Part shown: positions 15,201 to 43,883 of the stretch, piece by piece | Layout: each line of letters begins with the position of its first letter | Numbering within the stretch: position 1 is the stretch's first letter | From: Acidimicrobiia bacterium | GTDB lineage: Bacteria; Actinomycetota; Acidimicrobiia; Spongiisociales; JAENVV01 | Reading direction: 5' to 3' | Length of the DNA stretch: 64,000 nucleotides | Assembly (NCBI GenBank): GCA_041635475.1 | Contig: JBFKVA010000001.1 | Span: 64,794 to 128,793, forward strand | Made by a program: the position numbers and the translations under genes | Notes under the pieces: generated by a model | What the model saw: the letters and a program-made list of their open reading frames with translations, nothing else | Databases searched by the model: none | What the model was told of the DNA's origin: nothing

Positions 15201-15632
15201 TCCGCCCTGGCCATCGAGGTGACCGAGGCGGGCCTCCTCGTCGCCGCCGATGACAACCTGGCGATGCTCTCGGACCTGCGGGCCCGGGGCCTCCATCTCA
15301 CGCTCGACGACTTCGGGACCGGGGCCTCATCCCTTCAGCACTTCCGCCGTCTCCCCGTCGACCGGATCAAGATCGACCGCCTCTTCGTCCACGACGTCAA
15401 CCGCGAAGTCTCCTCAGGAGCCATCGTCAAGGCGAGCGCCCTCCTGGCGGACTCGGTCGGGGCCAAGCTCGTGGCCAAGGGCGCCGAGTCGGTCGAACAG
15501 CTCTCGGCGGTGCGCCGGCTGGGCGCCAAGGAAGTGCAGGGTTTCGTCCTCGAGCGCCCCCTGAGTGCCTCGGAGATCGCGGCCCTCTTCCACGTCGACC
15601 ACCCGATCCTGTCCGCCGGTCTCCCCGACTGA
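12237..15632 (+). CDS. multi-PAS sensor diguanylate cyclase/phosphodiesterase (PAS x4-5, GGDEF, EAL)
   Basis: 1130+ aa with GGDEFAIIV and an EAL block (IEALVRW...). Multiple PAS/PAC repeats; several carry heme/FAD-like signatures. Confidence 0.85.
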   Translation: MDQLDRSAEEIITRLADPAITRGSLDDLLESVVTTTKGKVVLGRRLASIPTGESSLRRLAALAGSPHLAVHLTEVDGERQAAILRRDAILNALLTNTATIVVGLEPNGRIGFCNAAATDAAGLVTGDSIITFAASFNQAELNRVLGEFAQGADRAHWSVELDTASAGTRSFDFSMIANRVDDDVVSFSVIGYDVTELRAVERALDEGRAFLQMVLDASPDVIQFTDPDGRMVLMNAAAKALFPEPEQRRLFALDGRPLEPSEFPSRMTLATGEPVFARVLTETDTGARRLWEAHARPTYADNGELLGSVTVSRDMTEAAELTAADVERQAFVRSLLRSTADAVVAVDSKLNVQYVNPRASEFFGYLAEGSSILDAPSDIVAVDGAAPSPENLPLERALRGEENVVVELEVRGPDQRLILAGLTNPIRDADGDVIGAVGVYRDVTEQQRATRREAARIQFTLQMLDSMSEPLAALNILTDEEYLNSAARNLGIPGPGSDLPLPFTRPDGAPLDEGILFEAMSGRPRERFEMVHKETGRVFVASVRGIETEDGVLGGVLTARDITELREAFQQLEVQSAAMDATITAMFITDAEGTIEWVNAAFTRLTGYTAEEAIGENPRILKSGVQPPEHFTEMWQTILSGRAWQGRLTNRTADGRNVVVDLWVTPVVDANGDITHFVAVQDDVTSEVEAEEIILHMATHDALTDLPNRRLFLEHLDQAIARAERSNGSLGVLMLDLDKFKDVNDALGHPAGDSLLREVAKRLLSRVRGTDVVARLGGDEFAIIVDDADLEGTRVVARDIIVALSREFQILRHEVRSGTTIGLAMYSPGTTAEQLLDRADLALYAAKDKERGTLEVYVPEMGEQTRQRAEMASELRRAIANEELTLEYQPIFDIESGSVTSIEALVRWVREDGSILYPSGFLGPAAESGLLPSLGRWVLDAVCSQASEWAREGRSPPPIAINVSPQELRSKGWGRLLSQALTRARIGPSALAIEVTEAGLLVAADDNLAMLSDLRARGLHLTLDDFGTGASSLQHFRRLPVDRIKIDRLFVHDVNREVSSGAIVKASALLADSVGAKLVAKGAESVEQLSAVRRLGAKEVQGFVLERPLSASEIAALFHVDHPILSAGLPD

Positions 15633-15690
15633 CCGTCTGCGTACCCCGGGGGGTATAGACTGGGACGACCAGAACCTCCAGGAGAGCGAC

Positions 15691-16131
15691 ATGGACCCGT
15701 TTCCACATCACTACCGCGTTTCGGCCACCGGCGGACCCCAGGGGGCCATTTCGCACGGCGGCGATCTTCCGCCACTCCTTGGCAACGCCCCCGCCCAGTT
15801 CGGCGGTCCCGGCGATCAGTGGTCGCCGGAGGAACTCCTGGCGGCGGCCGTCGCCGACTGCTTCATCCTCACCTTCCGGGCGGTGGCAGCGGCATCGGGG
15901 CTGACCTGGACGTCGCTGTCGTGTCGGGCAGAGGGTCTCCTCGAGCGGATCGACAGGGTGACCCGCTTCACCCGTTTCGACGTCCACGTCGAACTCGAGG
16001 TGCTGGAAGGTTCCGACCCGGAGCGGGTTGCCCGCCTCCTCGAGAAGTCCGAGGCCGGCTGCATCATCACCAACTCGATGAACACCCAGGTGATCCTCCA
16101 CCCCACGGTCACGTACGCCGCCGCTGGGTGA
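15691..16131 (+). CDS. OsmC/Ohr family peroxiredoxin-like protein
   Basis: MDPFPHHYRV...DCFILTFR...GCIITNSM OsmC fold motifs with the two conserved Cys. Confidence 0.75.
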   Translation: MDPFPHHYRVSATGGPQGAISHGGDLPPLLGNAPAQFGGPGDQWSPEELLAAAVADCFILTFRAVAAASGLTWTSLSCRAEGLLERIDRVTRFTRFDVHVELEVLEGSDPERVARLLEKSEAGCIITNSMNTQVILHPTVTYAAAG

Positions 16132-16254
16132 TGGCCCCGGCGACCCGGAGACTGTCCCGGGACGCCGTGTCCCGGACGGATCGGGACGCCGTCATCTTCC
16201 CGGCATCCCCCGCATCATGGACCATCGCAGTCGAGCGAGAAGGTCTCGCGGGAG

Positions 16255-16968
16255 GTGAATGAGATGAGCACCCGTGTCCAGAAACCCGATCGGGACACCC
16301 ACAAACCGGACCGGTGGGGATCCATGGCCGGGATGCTGTGGTTCCTCGGCTTCGCCGCCGCGGTGGCCTTGGGGCCATCCGGCTCTCCCGTCGTTGAATC
16401 ACCGGTGGCAGAACTCCGCGCCTGGTACGGCGTCGTGCAGCCTGACAACCAGCTCGGTGGCGCCATTCTGATCCTCGCGATCGGCGCCCTCATCTGGTTC
16501 ACCGGGAGTCTCCGTCGGGCCATCGACCGCGTCGAGCCGGATGGGAGGCTGGCGGGCATTGCGGCCGTGGCCGGTGTGGTGGCAGCCACCCTGCTCCTTG
16601 CCGGAGTCGCCCACACCATCCAATGGGCCATGTTCGCCGACTCCTTGGCGGGGCTCGACGACGCCTCCCTGACGGTCTTTCACCTCGGCCTCATGAACTC
16701 CAGCGGACTCACGGGGGTGGCGACGATCGCCTGGGGCATCATGGCCCTGGCGGTGGCCGTGGCCGGCTTTCGTCACGGGTTCGGTTCGCGGTGGATGGCC
16801 TGGGTGGCAGCCGTCACTGCCGGCACGTCACTGCTCGGTGTGCTCAACGTCATCCAGCCGACCGAAGACAGTCTCGGTGCCATCTTCTGGTTTGCCGGCT
16901 TCCTTCTGTTCCCGATTTGGATCGGGCTCCTCAGCGTCCAGGTGACCCGGGAGAACCGGAGGACCTGA
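16255..16968 (+). CDS. hypothetical integral membrane protein (6 TM)
   Basis: Hydrophobic 237-aa ORF. Start ambiguous among three in-frame Met. Confidence 0.55.
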   Translation: MNEMSTRVQKPDRDTHKPDRWGSMAGMLWFLGFAAAVALGPSGSPVVESPVAELRAWYGVVQPDNQLGGAILILAIGALIWFTGSLRRAIDRVEPDGRLAGIAAVAGVVAATLLLAGVAHTIQWAMFADSLAGLDDASLTVFHLGLMNSSGLTGVATIAWGIMALAVAVAGFRHGFGSRWMAWVAAVTAGTSLLGVLNVIQPTEDSLGAIFWFAGFLLFPIWIGLLSVQVTRENRRT

Positions 16969-16977
16969 CCGCCGACG

Positions 16978-17024
16978 GGTGCGCCCCCGGCGACCACGAC
17001 CCTTTTCTCACGCGGGGGCGCACC
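16978..17024 (+). terminator. 12-bp perfect-stem hairpin after the membrane protein gene
   Basis: ggtgcgcccccg ...23 nt... cgggggcgcacc. Confidence 0.4.
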
Positions 17025-17305
17025 ACGACGACGAAGGTGCCCCTGGTCGCGCGACCGGCGACCGGTTGAACCGGGCTCATTCCTGACTTCGCATCCCCGT
17101 GCCTGACACCTGACGCGACTCAGCCGGGCCGAACATCTCCTCGACGCGGCCCGTGAGCGTGTCCATCGACGCCAGGGACCCGGCGTCCCGCCGGATCGGG
17201 ACGTCTGCATCTTCCCCGCCGTCCGCCGATCGGCGACAGTCCCGCCATGGGGTGGGAAGGACCGCCCCCGGGCATCCCGGCACGGCCGGGAGGAAAGGAT
17301 CGAAC

Positions 17306-17737
17306 ATGGGCAGGAGACTCACGACGGTCGGGGCACTGGTGGCGGCGTTCACGCTGCTCATCGCCGTCCCCGCCTCAGCCGACCACTGCATCAACCTCAA
17401 CAAGAAGCCGTTGGCCGGGGCGCAGATCGTCTTCGGCCCGGAGGGCGATCCGATCACCGGTATCGTCTGGATGACCAACGGGCTCGAGAAGCGGGCCGCC
17501 AAGGGCCTCGTCGACTTGGTGACCGGGGAGGGGTTCAACGGCCTGATCGGGTTGATGCCGGGGTCCATCCCGGGCGTTGACGACGCGATCACGATCTACA
17601 TCGTCGGCCCGGACACCGGCGTGGACTACCCGGAGCGGGCCCTCCCCCACCAGGCGATGGAGCGCGGCTCGCCCGACCACGGCATCGTCGACATCTGCGA
17701 CCACTACGCAGGATTGTGCGAGCCTCCGCCGGAGTAG
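17306..17737 (+). CDS. secreted hypothetical protein (signal peptide, 4 Cys)
   Basis: MGRRLTTVGALVAAFTLLIAVPASA signal peptide. Good GGAGGA RBS upstream. Confidence 0.6.
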   Translation: MGRRLTTVGALVAAFTLLIAVPASADHCINLNKKPLAGAQIVFGPEGDPITGIVWMTNGLEKRAAKGLVDLVTGEGFNGLIGLMPGSIPGVDDAITIYIVGPDTGVDYPERALPHQAMERGSPDHGIVDICDHYAGLCEPPPE

Positions 17738-17889
17738 CCCGGACCACGGTGCCCGAGACACCAGTGGGCCCCCCGCTGCCGGGGGGCCTACTCGTGGAAC
17801 GCCACTCTCCGGCCACGGCGTGGCCCACGTGTCCCATCTGCCATGGCGGGACCCGGCCCCGGTCGCTCCGGAAACCCGCAGCTGGGGTG

Positions 17890-18117
17890 CTAGCGGCTCC
17901 CGTAGGCCTTGGCGCAGGAACGCTTGCCCTTGGCCGAGTCCAGGTAGCCCTCGGGCTGCTCGTAGGGGATGGGAACGCCGAGTCCCAGGGAGGTGTGGGC
18001 CAGGGCCACCTCCTCCTGGTGGGTGGCGCACCACTGGCGCTCCTCCTCGGACAGTGCGGTGTCGCCGCACGCGGCGAGCATGACGACGCAGGCAATGATC
18101 ACGGTGACTCTTCGCAT
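17890..18117 (-). CDS. small lipoprotein (hypothetical)
   Basis: MRRVTVIIACVVMLAACGD lipobox, 75 aa. Confidence 0.5.
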   Translation of the reverse strand: MRRVTVIIACVVMLAACGDTALSEEERQWCATHQEEVALAHTSLGLGVPIPYEQPEGYLDSAKGKRSCAKAYGSR

Positions 18118-18296
18118 GCCCCCAACCTAATCAGGCATCGTGGAGGACGTCGTCCGCGGAGGGGTACTCGCGCCTATCCGGTCCACCGTCGCCGTCGTTG
18201 CCGGTCAGTCGGCCATCCGCTCGTCGGAACCACCCCGAGCGCGCAGGCGCCAGCCCTGCACGGCTGAAGGAGCGCATCGCGTCTCGCGCGTGATCG

Positions 18297-18740
18297 ATGG
18301 ATGGCTCCACGTTCGGGTTGAATGGGGGCGTGACTGTCAGGATGCTGGATCGAGGGGACGAGGCGATGGTCCGGTCCGTGCTGACTCGCTTCAAGGCATA
18401 CCCGACGACCGATCCCGAGGAGTTCCTCGCCGATCCGCGAACCCTCCTGTTCGTGGCCGACGACGGCGGGACACCGGTCGGCTGGCTCTACGCCTACGAG
18501 CTGGTCCGACCGGAAGGGCGACGTGCCATGCTTCTGTACGAGCTGGAGGTGGCCCCCGAAGCTCGCAGGCGTGGTCACGGGCGGGCGCTGTTGGAGGCGC
18601 TGCTCACAGAAGCCCGGGCACGAGGCCATCTGCGGGTCTGGGTGCTCACCGAGCCGGACAACGAAGCAGCAGCGGCCCTCTACGCCGCAACGGGAGGTGC
18701 AGGATCGACGCGGGTGATGTTCACCTGGGCCCTGCCGTAG
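18297..18740 (+). CDS. GNAT family N-acetyltransferase
   Basis: Acetyl-CoA binding motif RRRGHGRALLEAL. Confidence 0.75.
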   Translation: MDGSTFGLNGGVTVRMLDRGDEAMVRSVLTRFKAYPTTDPEEFLADPRTLLFVADDGGTPVGWLYAYELVRPEGRRAMLLYELEVAPEARRRGHGRALLEALLTEARARGHLRVWVLTEPDNEAAAALYAATGGAGSTRVMFTWALP

Positions 18741-18767
18741 AGAACTGGCCGGGACAGGCGCGAGCCG

Positions 18768-18823
18768 CCGTGCGGGAACTCGAACGCCTCGCCCGCAGGC
18801 AAGCAACCAAGCCAGCCGGAAGC
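18768..18823 (-). repeat. decayed tRNA-Leu 3'-half-like repeat (copy A of family X)
   Basis: Minus-strand reading ...ttgcctgcgggcgaggcgttcgagttcccgcacggcgg resembles the variable-arm plus T-arm of tRNA-Leu(CAA). Similar to copies at 21531-21637. Confidence 0.5.
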
Positions 18824-18873
18824 GCCGGCGATGGTGCAGGAGTGAAGTACCGTCGTTCGACGCCGAACGGCCC

Positions 18874-20040
18874 TCAGGCCTCGGGCTCCGCGTGCAGACC
18901 GAGGCGTTGGATGCGGCGATGCTCGATGACCAGCACCGCGAACATCACAACGACGACAAGCGTCAACAGGTTCAGGCCCTCGAGCGGCGCTCCCACGAAG
19001 ATCAGGCCGGCAATGACCAAGGCACCCACCAGCCGCTCCCGCGCCTGGGCCCGAAAGGCACGCCAGACTGCAAGGTAGACCCCGATCAAGAAGAGGAACA
19101 GGCCGGCGGCCATCATGAGTCGGAACTCGAGAGGGACGGCGTCGCGCGGGTGCAGCACGATCTCCTCGAGCGCGGCCGCAGCCAGGATGACGCCTGCGAC
19201 GATGGGGGCATGGGCCCAGGTGTACACGTCTCGGATGAACCGACCAGCCGTTCGGCTATCGAGGTTGGTTGCGGCATACTCGAGCCCGGGGCTGGGCCGA
19301 TCGAAGTAGGCCCACCACAACGCCCCGGCGAATGCGCCGGACGCAAGCAGCGCCGAAACCGATGCCAGCGACAGGCTGTCGTTCTTCTCCAGGGCGGCAA
19401 CGACGGGAATACCGATGGCAACGATGACTTCGCCCAGCGCGACGATGATGATCAGCCCGTGACGCTCGGCGAAGTGGCCTGGACGCACCAGCCACTCGCT
19501 GTCGGCGGCCCTGACCATGGCCCACAGCACGATGGCTACGGTGCCAAGCCAGAACGCCAGCCGAGAAGTGCCGTCGTAGAAGGACCCCACGACCAGCACC
19601 AGGATGGCAACGACATTGGGAGCGATCCAGGTGAGAGCCGCAGAGCGATAGTCGACCTCATCGGTCGTGCCCATCGTCTGCATACGGAACCCAATGAGCA
19701 TGATGCCAGTGAGAGCGATCGCAAACACTGGTCCGCCCCCAGCGAACGCGGTCGAAGTGGAAGCCGCCATCGGGATACTGACCACCGTGGCAATGAGAAA
19801 AAGGATGCGCACCGGCCGCCCGTTGCCCGATATTGCGTTCGCCGCCCAGGTCAGCTGCTGCCACGGCAGCCACAGCAAAGCAAACAGCAACGCGGCCTTG
19901 CCCGCCCCCGCCCATGTGGGCTCGTCGATGAGAAGGGCCACGAGTTGCGAGAACGCGAATACGTAGGCCAGGTCGAAGAAGAGCTCAACGGGATCTGCCG
20001 TGAAATCCTCGGTGAGCGGAGGGAGTTCTATGCCCTTCAT
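18874..20040 (-). CDS. low-temperature-requirement LtrA family membrane protein
   Basis: ~388 aa with multiple TM segments. Motifs ELFFDLAYVFAFSQL and ERHGLIIIVALGE typical of the LtrA family. Confidence 0.75.
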   Translation of the reverse strand: MKGIELPPLTEDFTADPVELFFDLAYVFAFSQLVALLIDEPTWAGAGKAALLFALLWLPWQQLTWAANAISGNGRPVRILFLIATVVSIPMAASTSTAFAGGGPVFAIALTGIMLIGFRMQTMGTTDEVDYRSAALTWIAPNVVAILVLVVGSFYDGTSRLAFWLGTVAIVLWAMVRAADSEWLVRPGHFAERHGLIIIVALGEVIVAIGIPVVAALEKNDSLSLASVSALLASGAFAGALWWAYFDRPSPGLEYAATNLDSRTAGRFIRDVYTWAHAPIVAGVILAAAALEEIVLHPRDAVPLEFRLMMAAGLFLFLIGVYLAVWRAFRAQARERLVGALVIAGLIFVGAPLEGLNLLTLVVVVMFAVLVIEHRRIQRLGLHAEPEA

Positions 20041-20315
20041 GTGCCGGGTGTCCAGCTGACGGTCACGTCCCGATTGGCGCGGACATTGTGGAACCAATGG
20101 GGGTGATTCGGTGCACCGCCCTTGGTTGCGGCGACCACGGAGCTTCCGTCCTGAAGGGCAGAGACGAACGGGTTCATGAGCAGCTTCCCTGTCTTGGCGC
20201 CCGTGCCGTGGAGGATCACTAGGGGCTTGCCCTTGAAGAACCCGCCCACAGCCTGGTCGACTGCGCCGCCGTTGGCACGAGACTCCTCTATCACCGGCGC
20301 ATTGATGTCATTCAT
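20037..20315 (-). pseudogene. truncated Ddn-like F420H2-dependent reductase (DUF385) fragment
   Basis: 93 aa MNDINAPV...GKPLVILHGTGAKTGKLLMNPFVSALQDGSSVVAATKGGAPNHPHWFHNVRANRDVTVSW then stop. Family members continue ~50 aa further. Stop overlaps the LtrA start (ATGA). Confidence 0.45.
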
Positions 20316-20715
20316 TCGTTTGCCTTTCGTCGGGACCGGAGCCGTAGGGTCGCGTGAGGATCTCCCACCCGACGTCGGTGTGCGGATCGCTGAAGTAGAC
20401 ACCTCGTCCTCCATCGTGATGGTTGATCCGACCCGGTTGTGTCCGGCGAGGGTCGGCCCAGTATGGGAGCTCCCGTTCCTTGATCCGGTTCAAGGCCTGG
20501 TCGAACTGACGCTCGGTCACCAGGAACGCGAGGTGCATGCGGCTCGGGGTTCCGTTGGTGTCGGCGAAGTCGAGGGTGACGCCGTTTCCGGTCTCGACTT
20601 GGGTGAAGTGCCCGAACTCGCTCGGCGGTCCCATCCCTGCGATGTCCGCGAAGGATTCGGCGGCGGCCTGGCGGTCTTTCGCCCACACGATCAGGTGGTT
20701 CAGCTGTGGCTTCAT
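20308..20715 (-). CDS. VOC (glyoxalase/bleomycin-resistance) family protein
   Basis: MKPQLNHLIVWAKD...HLAFLVTE motifs. Confidence 0.7.
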   Translation of the reverse strand: MKPQLNHLIVWAKDRQAAAESFADIAGMGPPSEFGHFTQVETGNGVTLDFADTNGTPSRMHLAFLVTERQFDQALNRIKERELPYWADPRRTQPGRINHHDGGRGVYFSDPHTDVGWEILTRPYGSGPDERQTNE

Positions 20716-20817
20716 GTTCTGACTCCTATTGCGCGCCGTTTCCCTGGCCGGCCTAAGCCAGAGCGGCCGTACCGGCCCAACACGAGCCGAGCCTGGTGAC
20801 CCGGGGATACGCGTTGG

Positions 20818-21348
20818 CTAATAGCTGAGGGTGCCCTTGATGGTTGCGCTGAAGGCCCAGGGAACCGTGAGATCGAAGCAAGCGAACGAACCGGCTGGTG
20901 TGCACCCCGGGATGAACACCTGTTCAACCGCGTAGCTCAAGGTGGCGTCGCCACTGGCCCCTGCAAACTTCCCTGTGCCCCCGTCAACGGTGATCGGGAA
21001 CGATGTCGTGCCCGTATCGTCTGTGTAGGTGACGTGGAGTTCGTCTCCGTCGTCGGCAACGATGGTCATGATTCCGTTTTTGTGGCCGCCAACCACGGGG
21101 CAGTGAGTCACCGTGCTCTGGACTTGACCCATGTGGGAGGCTTTGCCGGTCGACACTGCCCGAGTCATGATGCCCCCGTTGTAGGGCACACACGAAACGT
21201 CGAAGCCGAACTCGGCCTCACCGACGAACGAGCCTTTGAATGGCCGGTCCGTGCCACCCCGGCCTGCGAAGGCCGGACTGACAGTCAGCGCCAGAAGTGC
21301 CGTCACCGCAGCGACGGTCGACCAACGTCTCAGCACGCGGACCTCCAA
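20818..21348 (-). CDS. secreted hypothetical protein (signal peptide, Cys-rich)
   Basis: Signal peptide ...VAAVTALLALTVSPAFA. Six Cys. No recognisable domain. Confidence 0.55.
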   Translation of the reverse strand: MEVRVLRRWSTVAAVTALLALTVSPAFAGRGGTDRPFKGSFVGEAEFGFDVSCVPYNGGIMTRAVSTGKASHMGQVQSTVTHCPVVGGHKNGIMTIVADDGDELHVTYTDDTGTTSFPITVDGGTGKFAGASGDATLSYAVEQVFIPGCTPAGSFACFDLTVPWAFSATIKGTLSY

Positions 21349-21530
21349 AGGGTTGGACTGGGGAGCGATGCCACCCTAGGTGGCGGTCGGGTGGGCGTAA
21401 AGGGAAAGAAACCGGTCTCGCTCGGGTCCGGGGGTGGCACCATCGACAAGGGCTACCGACCCGCACGCTCGGAGCGACAACCCCCTGGTGGGTATGTATC
21501 CGATCCGAAACTGCCGGGTACCGTGCCGGG

Positions 21531-21637
21531 GCCGCTACCGGGCCGCCTCGGCCGCAGGCAAGGGACCATGCCAGCCGGGACCAGCATGAGTTTCCGCCGT
21601 GCGGAAACTCGAACGCCACGGCCGCAGGCCGAGGCGC
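21531..21637 (-). repeat. two tandem decayed tRNA-Leu 3'-half-like repeats (family X copies B1, B2) directly downstream of tRNA-Leu(GAG)
   Basis: B1 (minus) gcctgcggccgtggcgttcgagtttccgcacggcgg and B2 (minus) ccggctggcatggtcccttgcctgcggccgaggcggcccggta. The region also forms a 10-bp hairpin gagtttccgc-cgt-gcggaaactc at ~21588-21610. Confidence 0.5.
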
Positions 21638-21723
21638 GGTGTCGGAGAAAGGACTTGAACCTTCACGAGCTTGCGCTCACTAGGCCCTCAACCTAGCGCG
21701 TCTACCAATTCCGCCACTCCGAC
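21638..21723 (-). tRNA. tRNA-Leu (anticodon GAG)
   Basis: Manual fold of the minus strand: 7-bp acceptor stem GTCGGAG/CTCCGAC, D-arm GCGGAATTGGTAGACGC, anticodon stem CTAGG/CCTAG with loop TTGAGGG, long variable arm, T-arm AAGGTTCAAGTCCTT. Sits downstream of secG, as in many actinobacteria. Confidence 0.85.
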
Positions 21724-21766
21724 GTGACAGCGGCGGGAGTATACCCACCACCCCTGGACGAGAACC

Positions 21767-22006
21767 TCAGCCGAGGAGGATCGTGAGGATGATCGTCGTC
21801 ACCGCGAAGATGCTCGAGGTGATGACCGTCAGCCGATCGAGGTTGCGCTCCACGACCGTTGAGCCCTGGAACTGCTGCGGCCCCATCCCGCCCCCGAACA
21901 TGTCCGACAGCCCCCCGCCTCGACCGGCGTGCAGGAGGATGAGCGCGATGAGTCCCAGGGAGACGATGATGTGGATGCCGATGAGGATGTTCTGAACGAT
22001 CTGCAT
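21767..22006 (-). CDS. secG: preprotein translocase subunit SecG
   Basis: MQIVQNILIGIHIIVSLGLIALILLHAGRGGGLSDMFGGG... (79 aa). Confidence 0.85.
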   Translation of the reverse strand: MQIVQNILIGIHIIVSLGLIALILLHAGRGGGLSDMFGGGMGPQQFQGSTVVERNLDRLTVITSSIFAVTTIILTILLG

Positions 22007-22067
22007 GAGCCTTGGGTCCTCGGAGGTACGGGAAGTGTAGAGGGAGGGGACGACTACGGCGAGACGA

Positions 22068-22811
22068 TCAGCCCGCCTGACGGGCCACGGCATCGGCAGC
22101 GGCGGCGATGTCGGCGGCGTCCCCGAGGTAGTAGGCGTCCTCCACCTCGAACGCTGACGACAGGTGGTAGACACGGGGTACGCCGGTCGGGATGTTGAGC
22201 GATGGGATCTCCTCGTCCGAGATCCCTTCGAGGTGCTTGGCGAGGGCCCGCAGGCTGTTGCCGTGGGCCACCACGAGCAGCTTCCGTCCCGCCCGCAGGT
22301 CGGGGACCATCCGGTCGTGCCAGAACGGCATCATCCGCTCGACCACGTCCTTGAGGCACTCCGTCGCCGGCAGGAGGTCGGGGGCGAGGGAGGCATAGCG
22401 AGGGTCGTGGGCCGGGTGCCGCTCGTCCATCGGATCGAGCGCCGGTGGTGGCGTGTCGTAGGAACGGCGCCACTCGAACACCCGGTCGGCTCCGTGGCGG
22501 TCGGCGGTCTCCTTCTTGTCGAGTCCTTGGAGGGCGCCGTAGTGCCGCTCGTTGAGGCGCCAGTGACGCACCACCTCGATCCACTCGAGGTCCATCTCCT
22601 CGAGGGCCAGGTTGGCCGTCTGGATCGCCCGCTTGAGGAGTGACGTATGGAGCAGGTCGAACGTGAGCCCGGCCGCGGCCATGACCCGCCCGGCTTCCCT
22701 GCCCTCGGCCACTCCCAGGTCGGTGAGGCCCACGTCGGTCCAACCGGTGAACCGATTCTCGAGGTTCCAGGTGCTCTGGCCGTGGCGCACCACGACGAGG
22801 GTGTACGTCAT
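22068..22811 (-). CDS. gpmA: 2,3-bisphosphoglycerate-dependent phosphoglycerate mutase
   Basis: [19 protein letters not shown]... His-phosphatase motif. Confidence 0.9.
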
Positions 22812-22944
22812 TGCTCTCCAGGGGCTCCGGTCAACCCAGCCTATCGGGCAGGAGAGGGACGAGCGTCAAGCGTCAACGGGGCCCCTCGTACCTCTCTCCT
22901 CGTACCTCTCTCCTCGTACCTCTCACCTCGTACCTCGTACCTCC

Positions 22945-43638: not shown

Positions 43639-43721
43639 CGCGTGCCCGGCCGGGATGGCGGAATGGTAGACGCGACGGACTCAAAATCCGTTGCCCGCAA
43701 GGGCGTGCGGGTTCGAGTCCC
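43639..43721 (+). tRNA. tRNA-Leu (anticodon CAA)
   Basis: Manual fold: acceptor GCCGGGA/TCCCGGT, D-arm GCGGAATGGTAGACGC, anticodon stem ACGGA/TCCGT with loop CTCAAAA, long variable arm, T-arm GCGGGTTCGAGTCCCGC. Confidence 0.85.
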
Positions 43722-43883
43722 GCTCCCGGTACGAAGTGAGGTCGGCCTTGTGCCGGCCTCGATTCGTCTTGGCGTGGGACACACGAGCCCGTCGGCGAAG
43801 CCGCGGGTTCGCTACGACGAGCGCAGCGAGGAGTGCCGAGCACCGGCGCAGCCGGGCGCAGGCCGTCCCGCTCCCGGTACGAA
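43722..43883 (+). repeat. decayed tRNA-Leu 3'-end copies, including a 19-bp exact direct repeat of the tRNA 3' end
   Basis: gtcccgctcccggtacgaa occurs at ~43707-43725 (genuine tRNA 3' end) and again at ~43865-43883. Between them lies a T-arm-like gaagccgcgggttcgctacgac fragment. Confidence 0.6.

Follow-up and report, generated by a model that had tools for sequence, protein, structure and literature searches.

A patchwork of gene fragments next to a tRNA-Leu gene in an Acidimicrobiia genome, and its short flanking repeat, which bears no mark of a tRNA-derived integration site

Downstream of the tRNA-Leu(GAG) gene of an Acidimicrobiia bacterium lies an ordinary tRNA-adjacent accessory islet. 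Its cargo is no element but has been stitched together from truncated pieces by microhomology, and nothing marks the short repeat found on both sides of part of this islet (X) as an integration site of tRNA origin. The locus was analysed within a window of 64 kb, by which we mean the whole stretch of 64,000 nucleotides, and its features are listed in Table 1. A sequence-only reading had interpreted the X copies as att-like remains of a tRNA-Leu attachment core at which an element had repeatedly integrated and been excised. We favour, with moderate confidence, a different origin, in which the bracketed interval makes up the half nearer the tRNA of a ~5.5-kb segment that varies between species, X started out as native spacer DNA and the patchwork entered it by ordinary recombination.

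Table 1. Features of the locus, in window coordinates.
Feature	Position	Strand	Evidence or remark
osmC, far-side conserved anchor	15691..16131	+	Pfam OsmC
Rest of variable segment	16132..18296	.	absent from L086; GC 0.687, genome-typical
Membrane protein	16255-16968	+	no Pfam family
Secreted protein	17306-17737	+	no Pfam family
Small lipoprotein-like gene	17890-18117	-	no Pfam family
GNAT acetyltransferase gene	18297..18740	+	Pfam Acetyltransf_1 E 3.4e-17; in variable segment, outside the bracket of the sequence-only reading
X locus 2 (copy A), a single complete unit, l-O-r-sp	18748..18819	-	between convergent LtrA and GNAT genes
LtrA module	18852..20051	-	88.8% nucleotide identity to L095-L100, 85% to L094
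LtrA gene	18874-20040	-	Pfam LtrA E 1.5e-66
Ddn fragment	20037-20315	-	F420H2_quin_red/Ddn profile positions 14-80 of 130
VOC + truncated Ddn (F420H2_quin_red) module	20046..20740	-	Pfam; nucleotide homology
VOC gene	20308-20715	-	weak Glyoxalase/VOC Pfam match; 90% homologues named VOC
Orphan gene, 172-aa protein, signal peptide, four Cys	20818..21336	-	RBS + GTG start by sequence; no Pfam family
X locus 1, rearranged, O-r-sp-l-O on minus strand	21544..21629	-	alignments to locus 2
X locus 1 element C (l + core O)	21544-21578		
X locus 1 spacer	21579-21593		
X locus 1 element B (core O + r)	21594-21629		
tRNA-Leu(GAG), intact	21638-21723	-	ARAGORN; Rfam tRNA 53.6 bits
secG, conserved anchor upstream of tRNA	21767..22006	-	Pfam SecG E 6.6e-18

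The tRNA-Leu(GAG) gene was confirmed on the minus strand beside X, where it had been placed from sequence, and its order after secG is kept across Acidimicrobiia relatives. In the closest long relative, L086, the syntenic SecG is 92% identical at the amino acid level, OsmC is 65% identical, and synteny extends beyond osmC through PAS-GGDEF, HU, 4HBT, ACAD and MFS genes. The order in L086 is secG-tRNA-terminator-osmC, an empty site with a tRNA-osmC gap of 123 nt, and because L086 has nothing between the terminator and osmC, the variable segment comprises ~5.5 kb (16132-21637, from the tRNA to osmC) and not the 18820-21543 interval between the repeats. The far break relative to L086 is at osmC, and copy A, which had been taken for a border of the variable region, is internal to it. 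L089 and L007 carry other cargo at the same site, bearing out the view that the bracketed interval is accessory and not core. The GNAT gene is not at the L086 site; its closest JGI relative (62%) lies after dnaE instead, and an empty-site search in metagenomes through this neighbour returned just the 62% homologue in its dnaE context. Polymorphism suggested by contig ends in other assemblies was discarded, as these ends lie in the D-arm of the tRNA, a stretch that tRNA-Leu(CAA) has as well, and are an assembly artefact. In a TIM-based genome scan, relatives reached at most 67% identity among the matches listed.

The 2.7-kb block bracketed by X differs from its surroundings in composition, with a GC content of 0.642 compared to 0.687 and a GC3 of 0.75-0.80 compared to 0.86-0.91 in flanks and core genes. 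It contains LtrA, a Ddn fragment, a VOC protein and a secreted protein, as described from sequence, except that the last, called Cys-rich, has four cysteines. The orphan secreted protein (GC3 0.75) has its exact sequence on record in one 1.1-kb Logan contig only. The VOC-Ddn module is 83-87% identical at the nucleotide level to L101-L103, where it belongs to a MarR / GFO_IDH-VOC-Ddn operon with a Ddn of 140 aa, and the homology begins 25 nt before the VOC ATG and ends at Ddn codon ~90. The homology of LtrA to relatives is limited to -11 to +22 around the gene, and the neighbourhoods in these relatives are unrelated. The breakpoints of the mosaic are sharp (20740, 20046/20051 and 18852), and the junction between LtrA and the Ddn fragment falls at a CAC(T)CCC microhomology of 5-7 nt. 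The possibility that copy A is the lost 3' coding part of the truncated Ddn was rejected, since inspection of the three minus-strand frames by eye revealed no Ddn C-terminal motif.

X is a non-coding unit of ~70 nt with four parts, l (19 nt), O (16 nt), r (20 nt) and sp (12-15 nt). Locus 2 holds one full unit, whereas locus 1, 86 nt long and just 3' of tRNA-Leu(GAG), is a 1.2-unit form; the order of parts in the one locus is a circular permutation of that in the other. The homology on which the proposal of three tRNA-Leu-like copies was based is real and in one orientation throughout: within copy A (18765-18819), 33/36 positions agree with 21594-21629 and 31/35 with 21544-21578. When gaps are allowed, one alignment covers 56 nt at 82% identity (18748-18800 with 21574-21629, E 1e-10) and another 35 nt at 89% (E 5e-8). 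What lies next to the tRNA is, however, not the pair of tandem ~40-nt repeats that it had seemed to be; B corresponds to the right part of A and C to the left part, they have only the 16-nt core in common (15/16), and TRF finds no tandem repeat. Divergence is alike across the parts of X (82-92% identity). X locus 1 contains a perfect 10-bp palindrome (21588-21610), whose stem copy A has lost through a deletion of 3 nt with no compensation. A candidate fourth partial copy at the secreted-gene/VOC junction (20744-20775) was discarded, as 72% identity over 32 nt cannot be told apart from chance in DNA this rich in GC.

The repeat is confined to this locus in everything we searched. With up to 3 mismatches allowed, a pattern search recovered the known X copies only in the 64 kb, where 0 are expected by chance, and no further copies were found in the window or in 105 related loci (1.37 Mb) by pattern search, blastn-short and nhmmer, which speaks against a ubiquitous REP element. 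Viral contigs and JGI metagenomes gave no match to X, and plasmid and phage collections gave chance-level matches only (best E 2e-3). X is identical in the window and in L001 and L003, all of which represent the same strain; because one strain alone has X, its pre-insertion state is never seen.

Our preferred reading of the locus is as follows. The lower-GC core (18852-21543) is a patchwork of pieces found in other contexts in relatives: the orphan secreted-protein gene, a VOC gene with the first two thirds of a Ddn-type gene, and a tightly trimmed LtrA. The VOC and partial Ddn were cut from a MarR/GFO_IDH-VOC-Ddn operon, and LtrA is fused to the broken Ddn at the microhomology. X would most likely be native spacer DNA that had previously undergone a small local duplication, and the patchwork would then have been inserted inside X through ordinary recombination, requiring neither a dedicated integrase nor a tRNA-derived attachment core. 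This could have happened by a single crossover between looped or circular DNA carrying the 35-nt l-O and the resident l-O, or by insertion into a short X array, and either route would leave l-O as imperfect direct repeats on both sides. The anatomy of the repeat and the joints of the mosaic are observed directly, as are the lack of the segment in relatives and the lack of both an integrase and a tRNA fragment in the window. We infer the order of events and the recombination route, the choice between crossover and array insertion being read from the anatomy alone.

The same permuted anatomy could also mean that X was a bystander, left over when a little spacer DNA was duplicated in tandem or as a segment, and that the pieces were gathered independently by illegitimate recombination, in which case the flanking position of X would say nothing about mechanism. 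Circular permutations of a ~70-nt unit are what a short array would leave behind, the similar divergence of the X parts fits such an origin, and at least one internal joint of the mosaic was made by microhomology with no X required. We nonetheless regard this as doubtful, since the change in GC content that sets off the 2.7-kb block falls at the two l-O copies and the 35-nt imperfect direct repeat lies exactly around the block, as expected of a homology-guided insertion; moreover, TRF detects no array today.

The sequence-only reading proposed that X represents decayed attL/attR remnants carrying a tRNA-Leu(CAA)-like 3' half, with the integrase lost or encoded elsewhere. It took a stretch of X (...GTTCGAGTTCCCGCACGGCGG) for the variable arm and T-arm of a tRNA-Leu(CAA)-like gene, and copy A does align with positions 42-75 of tRNA-Leu(CAA) at 27/34 positions, with three gap openings and four gapped columns. 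The resulting score of 28 compares with a shuffle mean of 14.3 and makes copy A the best non-tRNA match to tRNA-Leu(CAA) among the 55-mers of the window, but it is only one match above the genomic background, the best unrelated 55-mers scoring 26. Against tRNA-Leu(GAG), X scores 13, the shuffle mean, in agreement with the earlier observation that it does not match the resident tRNA; X is not cognate, and blastn-short revealed no displaced fragment of tRNA-Leu(GAG) of at least 13 nt in the window, only 12-nt chance matches. The tRNA covariance model and the T-arm models of the tRNA clan returned nothing at E<=10 on either X locus with truncation allowed, even when the stretch searched began at the putative tRNA fragment. 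By contrast, the genuine 3' half of tRNA-Leu(CAA), used as a positive control, was picked up by the tmRNA T-arm model (E 0.0013) as well as by Y-RNA and mascRNA tRNA-like arms. X has neither a T-arm that can fold nor an acceptor strand of tRNA type; the five bases on each side of TTCGAGT do not pair, and the would-be acceptor strand ACGGCGG would need a C1 tRNA. Based on the covariance models and stem inspection, we rejected X as a tRNA pseudogene or 3' half. Since copy A is the top non-tRNA match and X shares the orientation of the tRNA, a very decayed tRNA origin is still conceivable.

The surroundings of X also bear on an attachment-site origin, which we consider unlikely. Direct repeats in the tRNA's orientation around lower-GC cargo, a site that is variable among relatives and a true displaced tDNA fragment at the window's other tRNA-Leu gene count in its favour. 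In addition, two relatives, L094 and L101, have their closest homologues of LtrA and VOC 2-6 kb from orthologous tyrosine recombinases of 307 aa, making recombinase-mediated movement of LtrA/VOC in the clade conceivable. No integrase, transposase or recombinase was found, however, among the called ORFs of the 64-kb window, including those of the interval (no Phage_integrase match), and tblastn with the relatives' integrases against the window was negative. The cargo consists of truncated fragments, and the segment that L086 lacks has copy A in its interior and not at its edge.

Each X locus directly follows the 3' end of a minus-strand gene (tRNA-Leu in one case, LtrA in the other), locus 1 has two strong hairpins, one with the perfect 10-bp stem, and L086 and L089 carry a terminator hairpin at the same post-tRNA position, which raises the possibility that X is a functional 3'-end element (a terminator lacking a U-tract, or RNA-processing hairpins) copied for its usefulness after minus-strand units. 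We judge this very unlikely: the folding energies are no better than those of shuffled sequences (z -0.3 to -1.7, minus strand), the 10-bp stem is disrupted in copy A without compensation, and X matches no Rfam family. An intrinsic terminator was rejected because the hairpins have no T-run and a terminator scan of 15500-22500 finds 0 sites. Other known arrangements were likewise set aside. An integron attC is incompatible with GTTCGAG and CTCGAAC, which by inspection break the R'/R'' consensus (R''=RYYYAAC, R'=GTTRRRY), and an integron cassette with the homology of LtrA, which stops 22 nt past the stop codon so that no site travels with the gene, and with the lack of an integrase in the window. 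A CRISPR array would require regularly spaced repeats of at least ~23 nt, whereas here a 16-nt core recurs only twice at 70-nt spacing.

Finally, Acidimicrobiia might have a small cassette-like mobilisation system whose recombination site is X and whose enzyme, a tyrosine recombinase of the L094/L101 type, acts in trans; a circular intermediate that recombined at the 16-nt core would then have left the permuted ~70-nt copies. We give this hardly any credence, but if true it would point to an undescribed gene-shuffling route in Actinomycetota.

The locus has little importance past annotation; it adds to the known plasticity spots beside tRNA genes one from an uncultured lineage of Acidimicrobiia. 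It illustrates that accessory DNA at such a spot can amount to a scrapyard in which microhomology has joined fragments of genes, and not to an integrated element, and that a short flanking repeat bearing TTCGAG should not be called a tRNA-derived att site before cognate-fragment and integrase tests.

Islands targeted to tDNA, as catalogued by Islander, are tyrosine-integrase islands lying between an intact tRNA gene and its displaced fragment (PMC4383910). The locus described here resembles them in its position directly 3' of an intact tRNA gene, in its lower-GC accessory cargo, in repeats that follow the tRNA's orientation and in a site that is empty or otherwise filled in relatives. Unlike in these islands (PMC4383910), the repeat is no piece of the tRNA beside it, nor demonstrably of any tRNA, there is no tyrosine integrase within the interval, the repeats span 2.7 kb of a 5.5-kb variable segment whose break is not at the repeat, and truncated pieces of genes, stitched together by microhomology, make up the cargo. 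Within the same window, tRNA-Leu(CAA) has a displaced 19-nt 3' fragment at 43865-43883 (E 1.7e-5), which resembles X in being directly repeated downstream of a tRNA-Leu gene that has no integrase close to it; that fragment reproduces the cognate 3' end and 4 adjoining bases without a mismatch, whereas X stands in no such relation to either tRNA, and therefore the notion that the same repeat logic operates at both tRNA-Leu genes fails. With REP/BIME or MITE sequences X shares being short, GC-rich, hairpin-capable, intergenic and 3' of genes, but it occurs as one pair of loci in 64 kb and nowhere in the 1.37 Mb of related loci, with no terminal inverted repeats or target duplications evident. 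Integrase-less variable islets, or plasticity spots, are built by illegitimate and short-homology recombination. Whereas such islets need no flanking repeat and a ~70-nt spacer repeat surrounds the youngest block here, the locus is like them, as they are generally known, in its patchwork of fragments, its sharp breakpoints, its microhomology joint, its freedom from mobility genes and its relative-specific content.

The window is GC-rich (0.687), and its genes and nearest relatives assign it to uncultured Acidimicrobiia (phylum Actinomycetota). The conserved minus-strand run uvrA-uvrC-rapZ-cofD-pgk-tpiA-PGM-secG-tRNA-Leu(GAG) lies upstream of the islet, and ARAGORN and Rfam place two tRNA genes in the window. 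The closest long relative, L086 (L labels denote loci fetched from related contigs), has a PGM identity of 85% and a 1.34-Mb contig that is syntenic on both sides; there, secG and tRNA-Leu(GAG) are followed by a canonical terminator hairpin and, at 123 nt, by osmC. Relative to L086 the window carries ~5.5 kb of extra DNA (16132-21637), so that copy A of the repeat X lies inside the variable segment and not on its edge. At the same site L089 (78% PGM) encodes a membrane protein as well as an unrelated Ddn-family protein of full length, and L007 a VapBC-like pair. X is present in none of these three relatives, and as the content of the site differs among them, it is a plasticity spot. The matches listed by a scan of one genome collection were all distant relatives, and none of the relatives examined was a same-genus genome showing an intermediate state. 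The accessory islet proposed at tRNA-Leu(GAG) is thus supported by variability in relatives, but in enlarged form, with copy A no longer its border.

Coordinates of tRNA genes, repeats and recombinase genes
Feature	Sequence	Position	Strand	Remark
tRNA-Leu(GAG)	window	21638-21723	-	ARAGORN, Rfam
tRNA-Leu(CAA)	window	43649-43732	+	ARAGORN, Rfam
3'-end copy of tRNA-Leu(CAA)	window	43865-43883		19 nt
~50-nt block, first copy	window	16150-16205	+
~50-nt block, second copy	window	17165-17220	+
14-nt tandem repeat	window	22884-22939		~4 copies
LtrA gene	window	18874-20040
307-aa tyrosine recombinase	L094	2834-3757		next to PemK toxin gene
307-aa tyrosine recombinase	L101	2895-3818		next to PemK toxin gene
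tRNA-Val(CAC) 3' end and its copy	L094	16920-16949; 19771-19801		17-31 nt

Inside the variable segment, a conserved ~50-nt block (consensus CCnGGGAC..GTCCC..CGGATCGGGACGyCnnCATCTTCCC) precedes two plus-strand genes that are unrelated and whose functions are unknown, one for a membrane protein and one for a secreted protein; it occurs twice in the window, with 0 copies expected by chance, and may serve the two genes as a common leader or operator. The spacer separating the tpiA and PGM genes is not of the same length as in contig L002 of the same species and holds the 14-nt tandem repeat CCTCGTACCTCTCT. The tRNA-Leu(GAG) D-arm (window ~21697-21716), 19/20 identical to that of tRNA-Leu(CAA), is the breakpoint of contigs in four independent assemblies (the ends of L002, L004 and L005, the start of L001); these stops reflect assembly breakage at a short segment that the two tRNAs share and are no evidence of strain polymorphism.

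The repeat itself is real. Copy A (18765-18819) matches 21594-21629 at 33 of 36 positions and 21544-21578 at 31 of 35, all in the same orientation, and gapped alignment joins 18748-18800 to 21574-21629 over 56 nt (82%, E 1e-10), with a second alignment of 35 nt (89%, E 5e-8). The next-best match to X in the window has an E value of 0.07, and degenerate patterns allowing up to 3 mismatches recovered only the known copies there (shuffles expect 0). In minus-strand reading, copy A forms a single unit of the parts l (19 nt), O (16 nt), r (20 nt) and sp (12 nt), and the tRNA-proximal locus reads O-r-sp-l-O; the two elements at the latter thus represent different halves of this unit, with only the 16-nt core in common. 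They do match copy A, but they are not the tandem ~40-nt copies first described, and Tandem Repeats Finder reports no tandem repeat at this locus. X was not found in viral contigs or JGI metagenomes, plasmid and phage collections gave nothing above chance level, and nhmmer over 1.37 Mb of fetched loci returned only L001 and L003, both identical to the window there. In the available data, X is specific to this strain.

The genes between the X loci are accessory, as had been proposed, and their pieces occur in other contexts in relatives. L101-L103 match the VOC-Ddn piece (20740-20046 of the window) at 83-87% identity and carry it as the central part of a MarR / GFO_IDH-VOC-Ddn (140 aa) operon; homology runs from 25 nt before the VOC start to about Ddn codon 90. 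The LtrA piece (20051 to 18852) shares 88.8% DNA identity with the LtrA genes of L095-L100 (ADC neighbour) and 85% with L094, in an integrase/Fic/PemK region, the homology with relatives being confined to -11 to +22 around the gene. The Ddn/LtrA joint falls within CAC(T)CCC microhomology. The secreted-protein gene matched no family and, apart from the window, is on record only in a single short contig from the same strain. The block 18852-21543 has a GC content of 0.642 and a GC3 of 0.75-0.80, compared with a GC of 0.687 in the remainder of the variable segment and in the window, and a GC3 of 0.86-0.91 for core genes. Given this patchwork content and shifted composition, the 2.7-kb block is a younger, foreign-looking mosaic nested in an older variable segment, with 35-nt l-O repeats on its flanks.

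LtrA is unusually conserved: 90%-identity clusters by the dozen show amino acid identities of 87-92%, whereas the housekeeping PGM next to it does not exceed 85% with its nearest non-self match. The neighbourhoods of LtrA are nevertheless unrelated between genomes, a pattern that suggests frequent transfer within the clade. Two different relatives, L094 with the closest homologue of LtrA and L101 with that of VOC, each encode a 307-aa tyrosine recombinase 2-6 kb from the homologue; the two recombinases are orthologues with 87% identity, with homology limited to about -40 to +60 around the gene, so their contexts differ. At a distance of 2.8 kb from its tRNA-Val(CAC) gene, L094 also holds a copy of that gene's 3' end; together they enclose DUF2254 genes as a small tRNA-anchored islet.

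The anatomy of the locus is tRNA-b1-O-r-sp-[l-O]-mosaic-[l-O]-r-sp-GNAT. From it we favour a short-homology insertion at X, although for the whole statement, route and order of events included, we see roughly even chances. DNA in circular or looped form, with l-O on it, would have entered by a single crossover within l-O, the recipient chromosome already holding ~1.7 units of X; insertion into a three-unit X array would have the same outcome. A purely bystander duplication of X is possible but distinctly less probable.

A decayed tRNA attachment site is improbable. The sequence-only reading saw in X the variable arm and T-arm of a tRNA-Leu(CAA)-like gene, and over these arms copy A does align with tRNA-Leu(CAA) at 27/34 positions (three gap openings, four gapped columns), scoring 28 against 14.3 +/- 2.5 for mononucleotide shuffles. 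When every 55-mer on either strand of the window served as an empirical background, copy A came out as the top non-tRNA segment, but unrelated segments score up to 26, so that its excess amounts to a single match; against tRNA-Leu(GAG) it scores at background. The 5 bases flanking TTCGAGT on each side are unpaired, and the would-be acceptor strand, ACGGCGG, requires a tRNA with first base C. Rfam covariance models gave no tRNA-clan match at E<=10 for either X locus, even when the search began at the putative fragment to allow truncated matches, whereas the genuine tRNA-Leu(CAA) 3' half, searched alike, matched the tmRNA T-arm (E 0.0013) and the tRNA-like arms of Y RNA and mascRNA. The resemblance thus amounts to a faint similarity of sequence that lacks the structure. 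Least probable is a functional 3'-end element, for although the tRNA-proximal locus folds into two strong hairpins, one with a perfect 10-bp stem, X has no U-tract, its folding energies are no better than those of shuffles and in copy A the 10-bp stem is not intact.

Some 133 nt downstream of tRNA-Leu(CAA) lies GTCCCGCTCCCGGTACGAA (19 nt), which repeats the 3' end of that gene plus 4 flanking bases perfectly (E 1.7e-5). It is a classic displaced tDNA fragment, with almost nothing between fragment and tRNA (43649-43883 for the pair); polA, a small ORF and an SCO4226-like gene adjoin it, with no integrase nearby. Since tRNA-Leu(GAG) has no such cognate copy, the two tRNA-Leu genes do not share the repeat logic that had been suggested. 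None of the ORFs called in the interval or elsewhere in the 64 kb matched integrase, recombinase or transposase families, and tblastn of the relatives' tyrosine recombinases against the window was negative. The first observation is partly confirmed, but its reading of X as attachment-core debris from repeated integration and excision is not supported. The accepted signature of tDNA islands is an intact tDNA, a fragment of it displaced without change of orientation, and an integrase gene lying between the two (PMC4383910). Here the window contains no displaced fragment of tRNA-Leu(GAG), and no integrase gene was found among the ORFs called in its 64 kb; the locus is a plasticity spot of an ordinary kind beside a tRNA gene, and its spacer repeat is specific to the locus.
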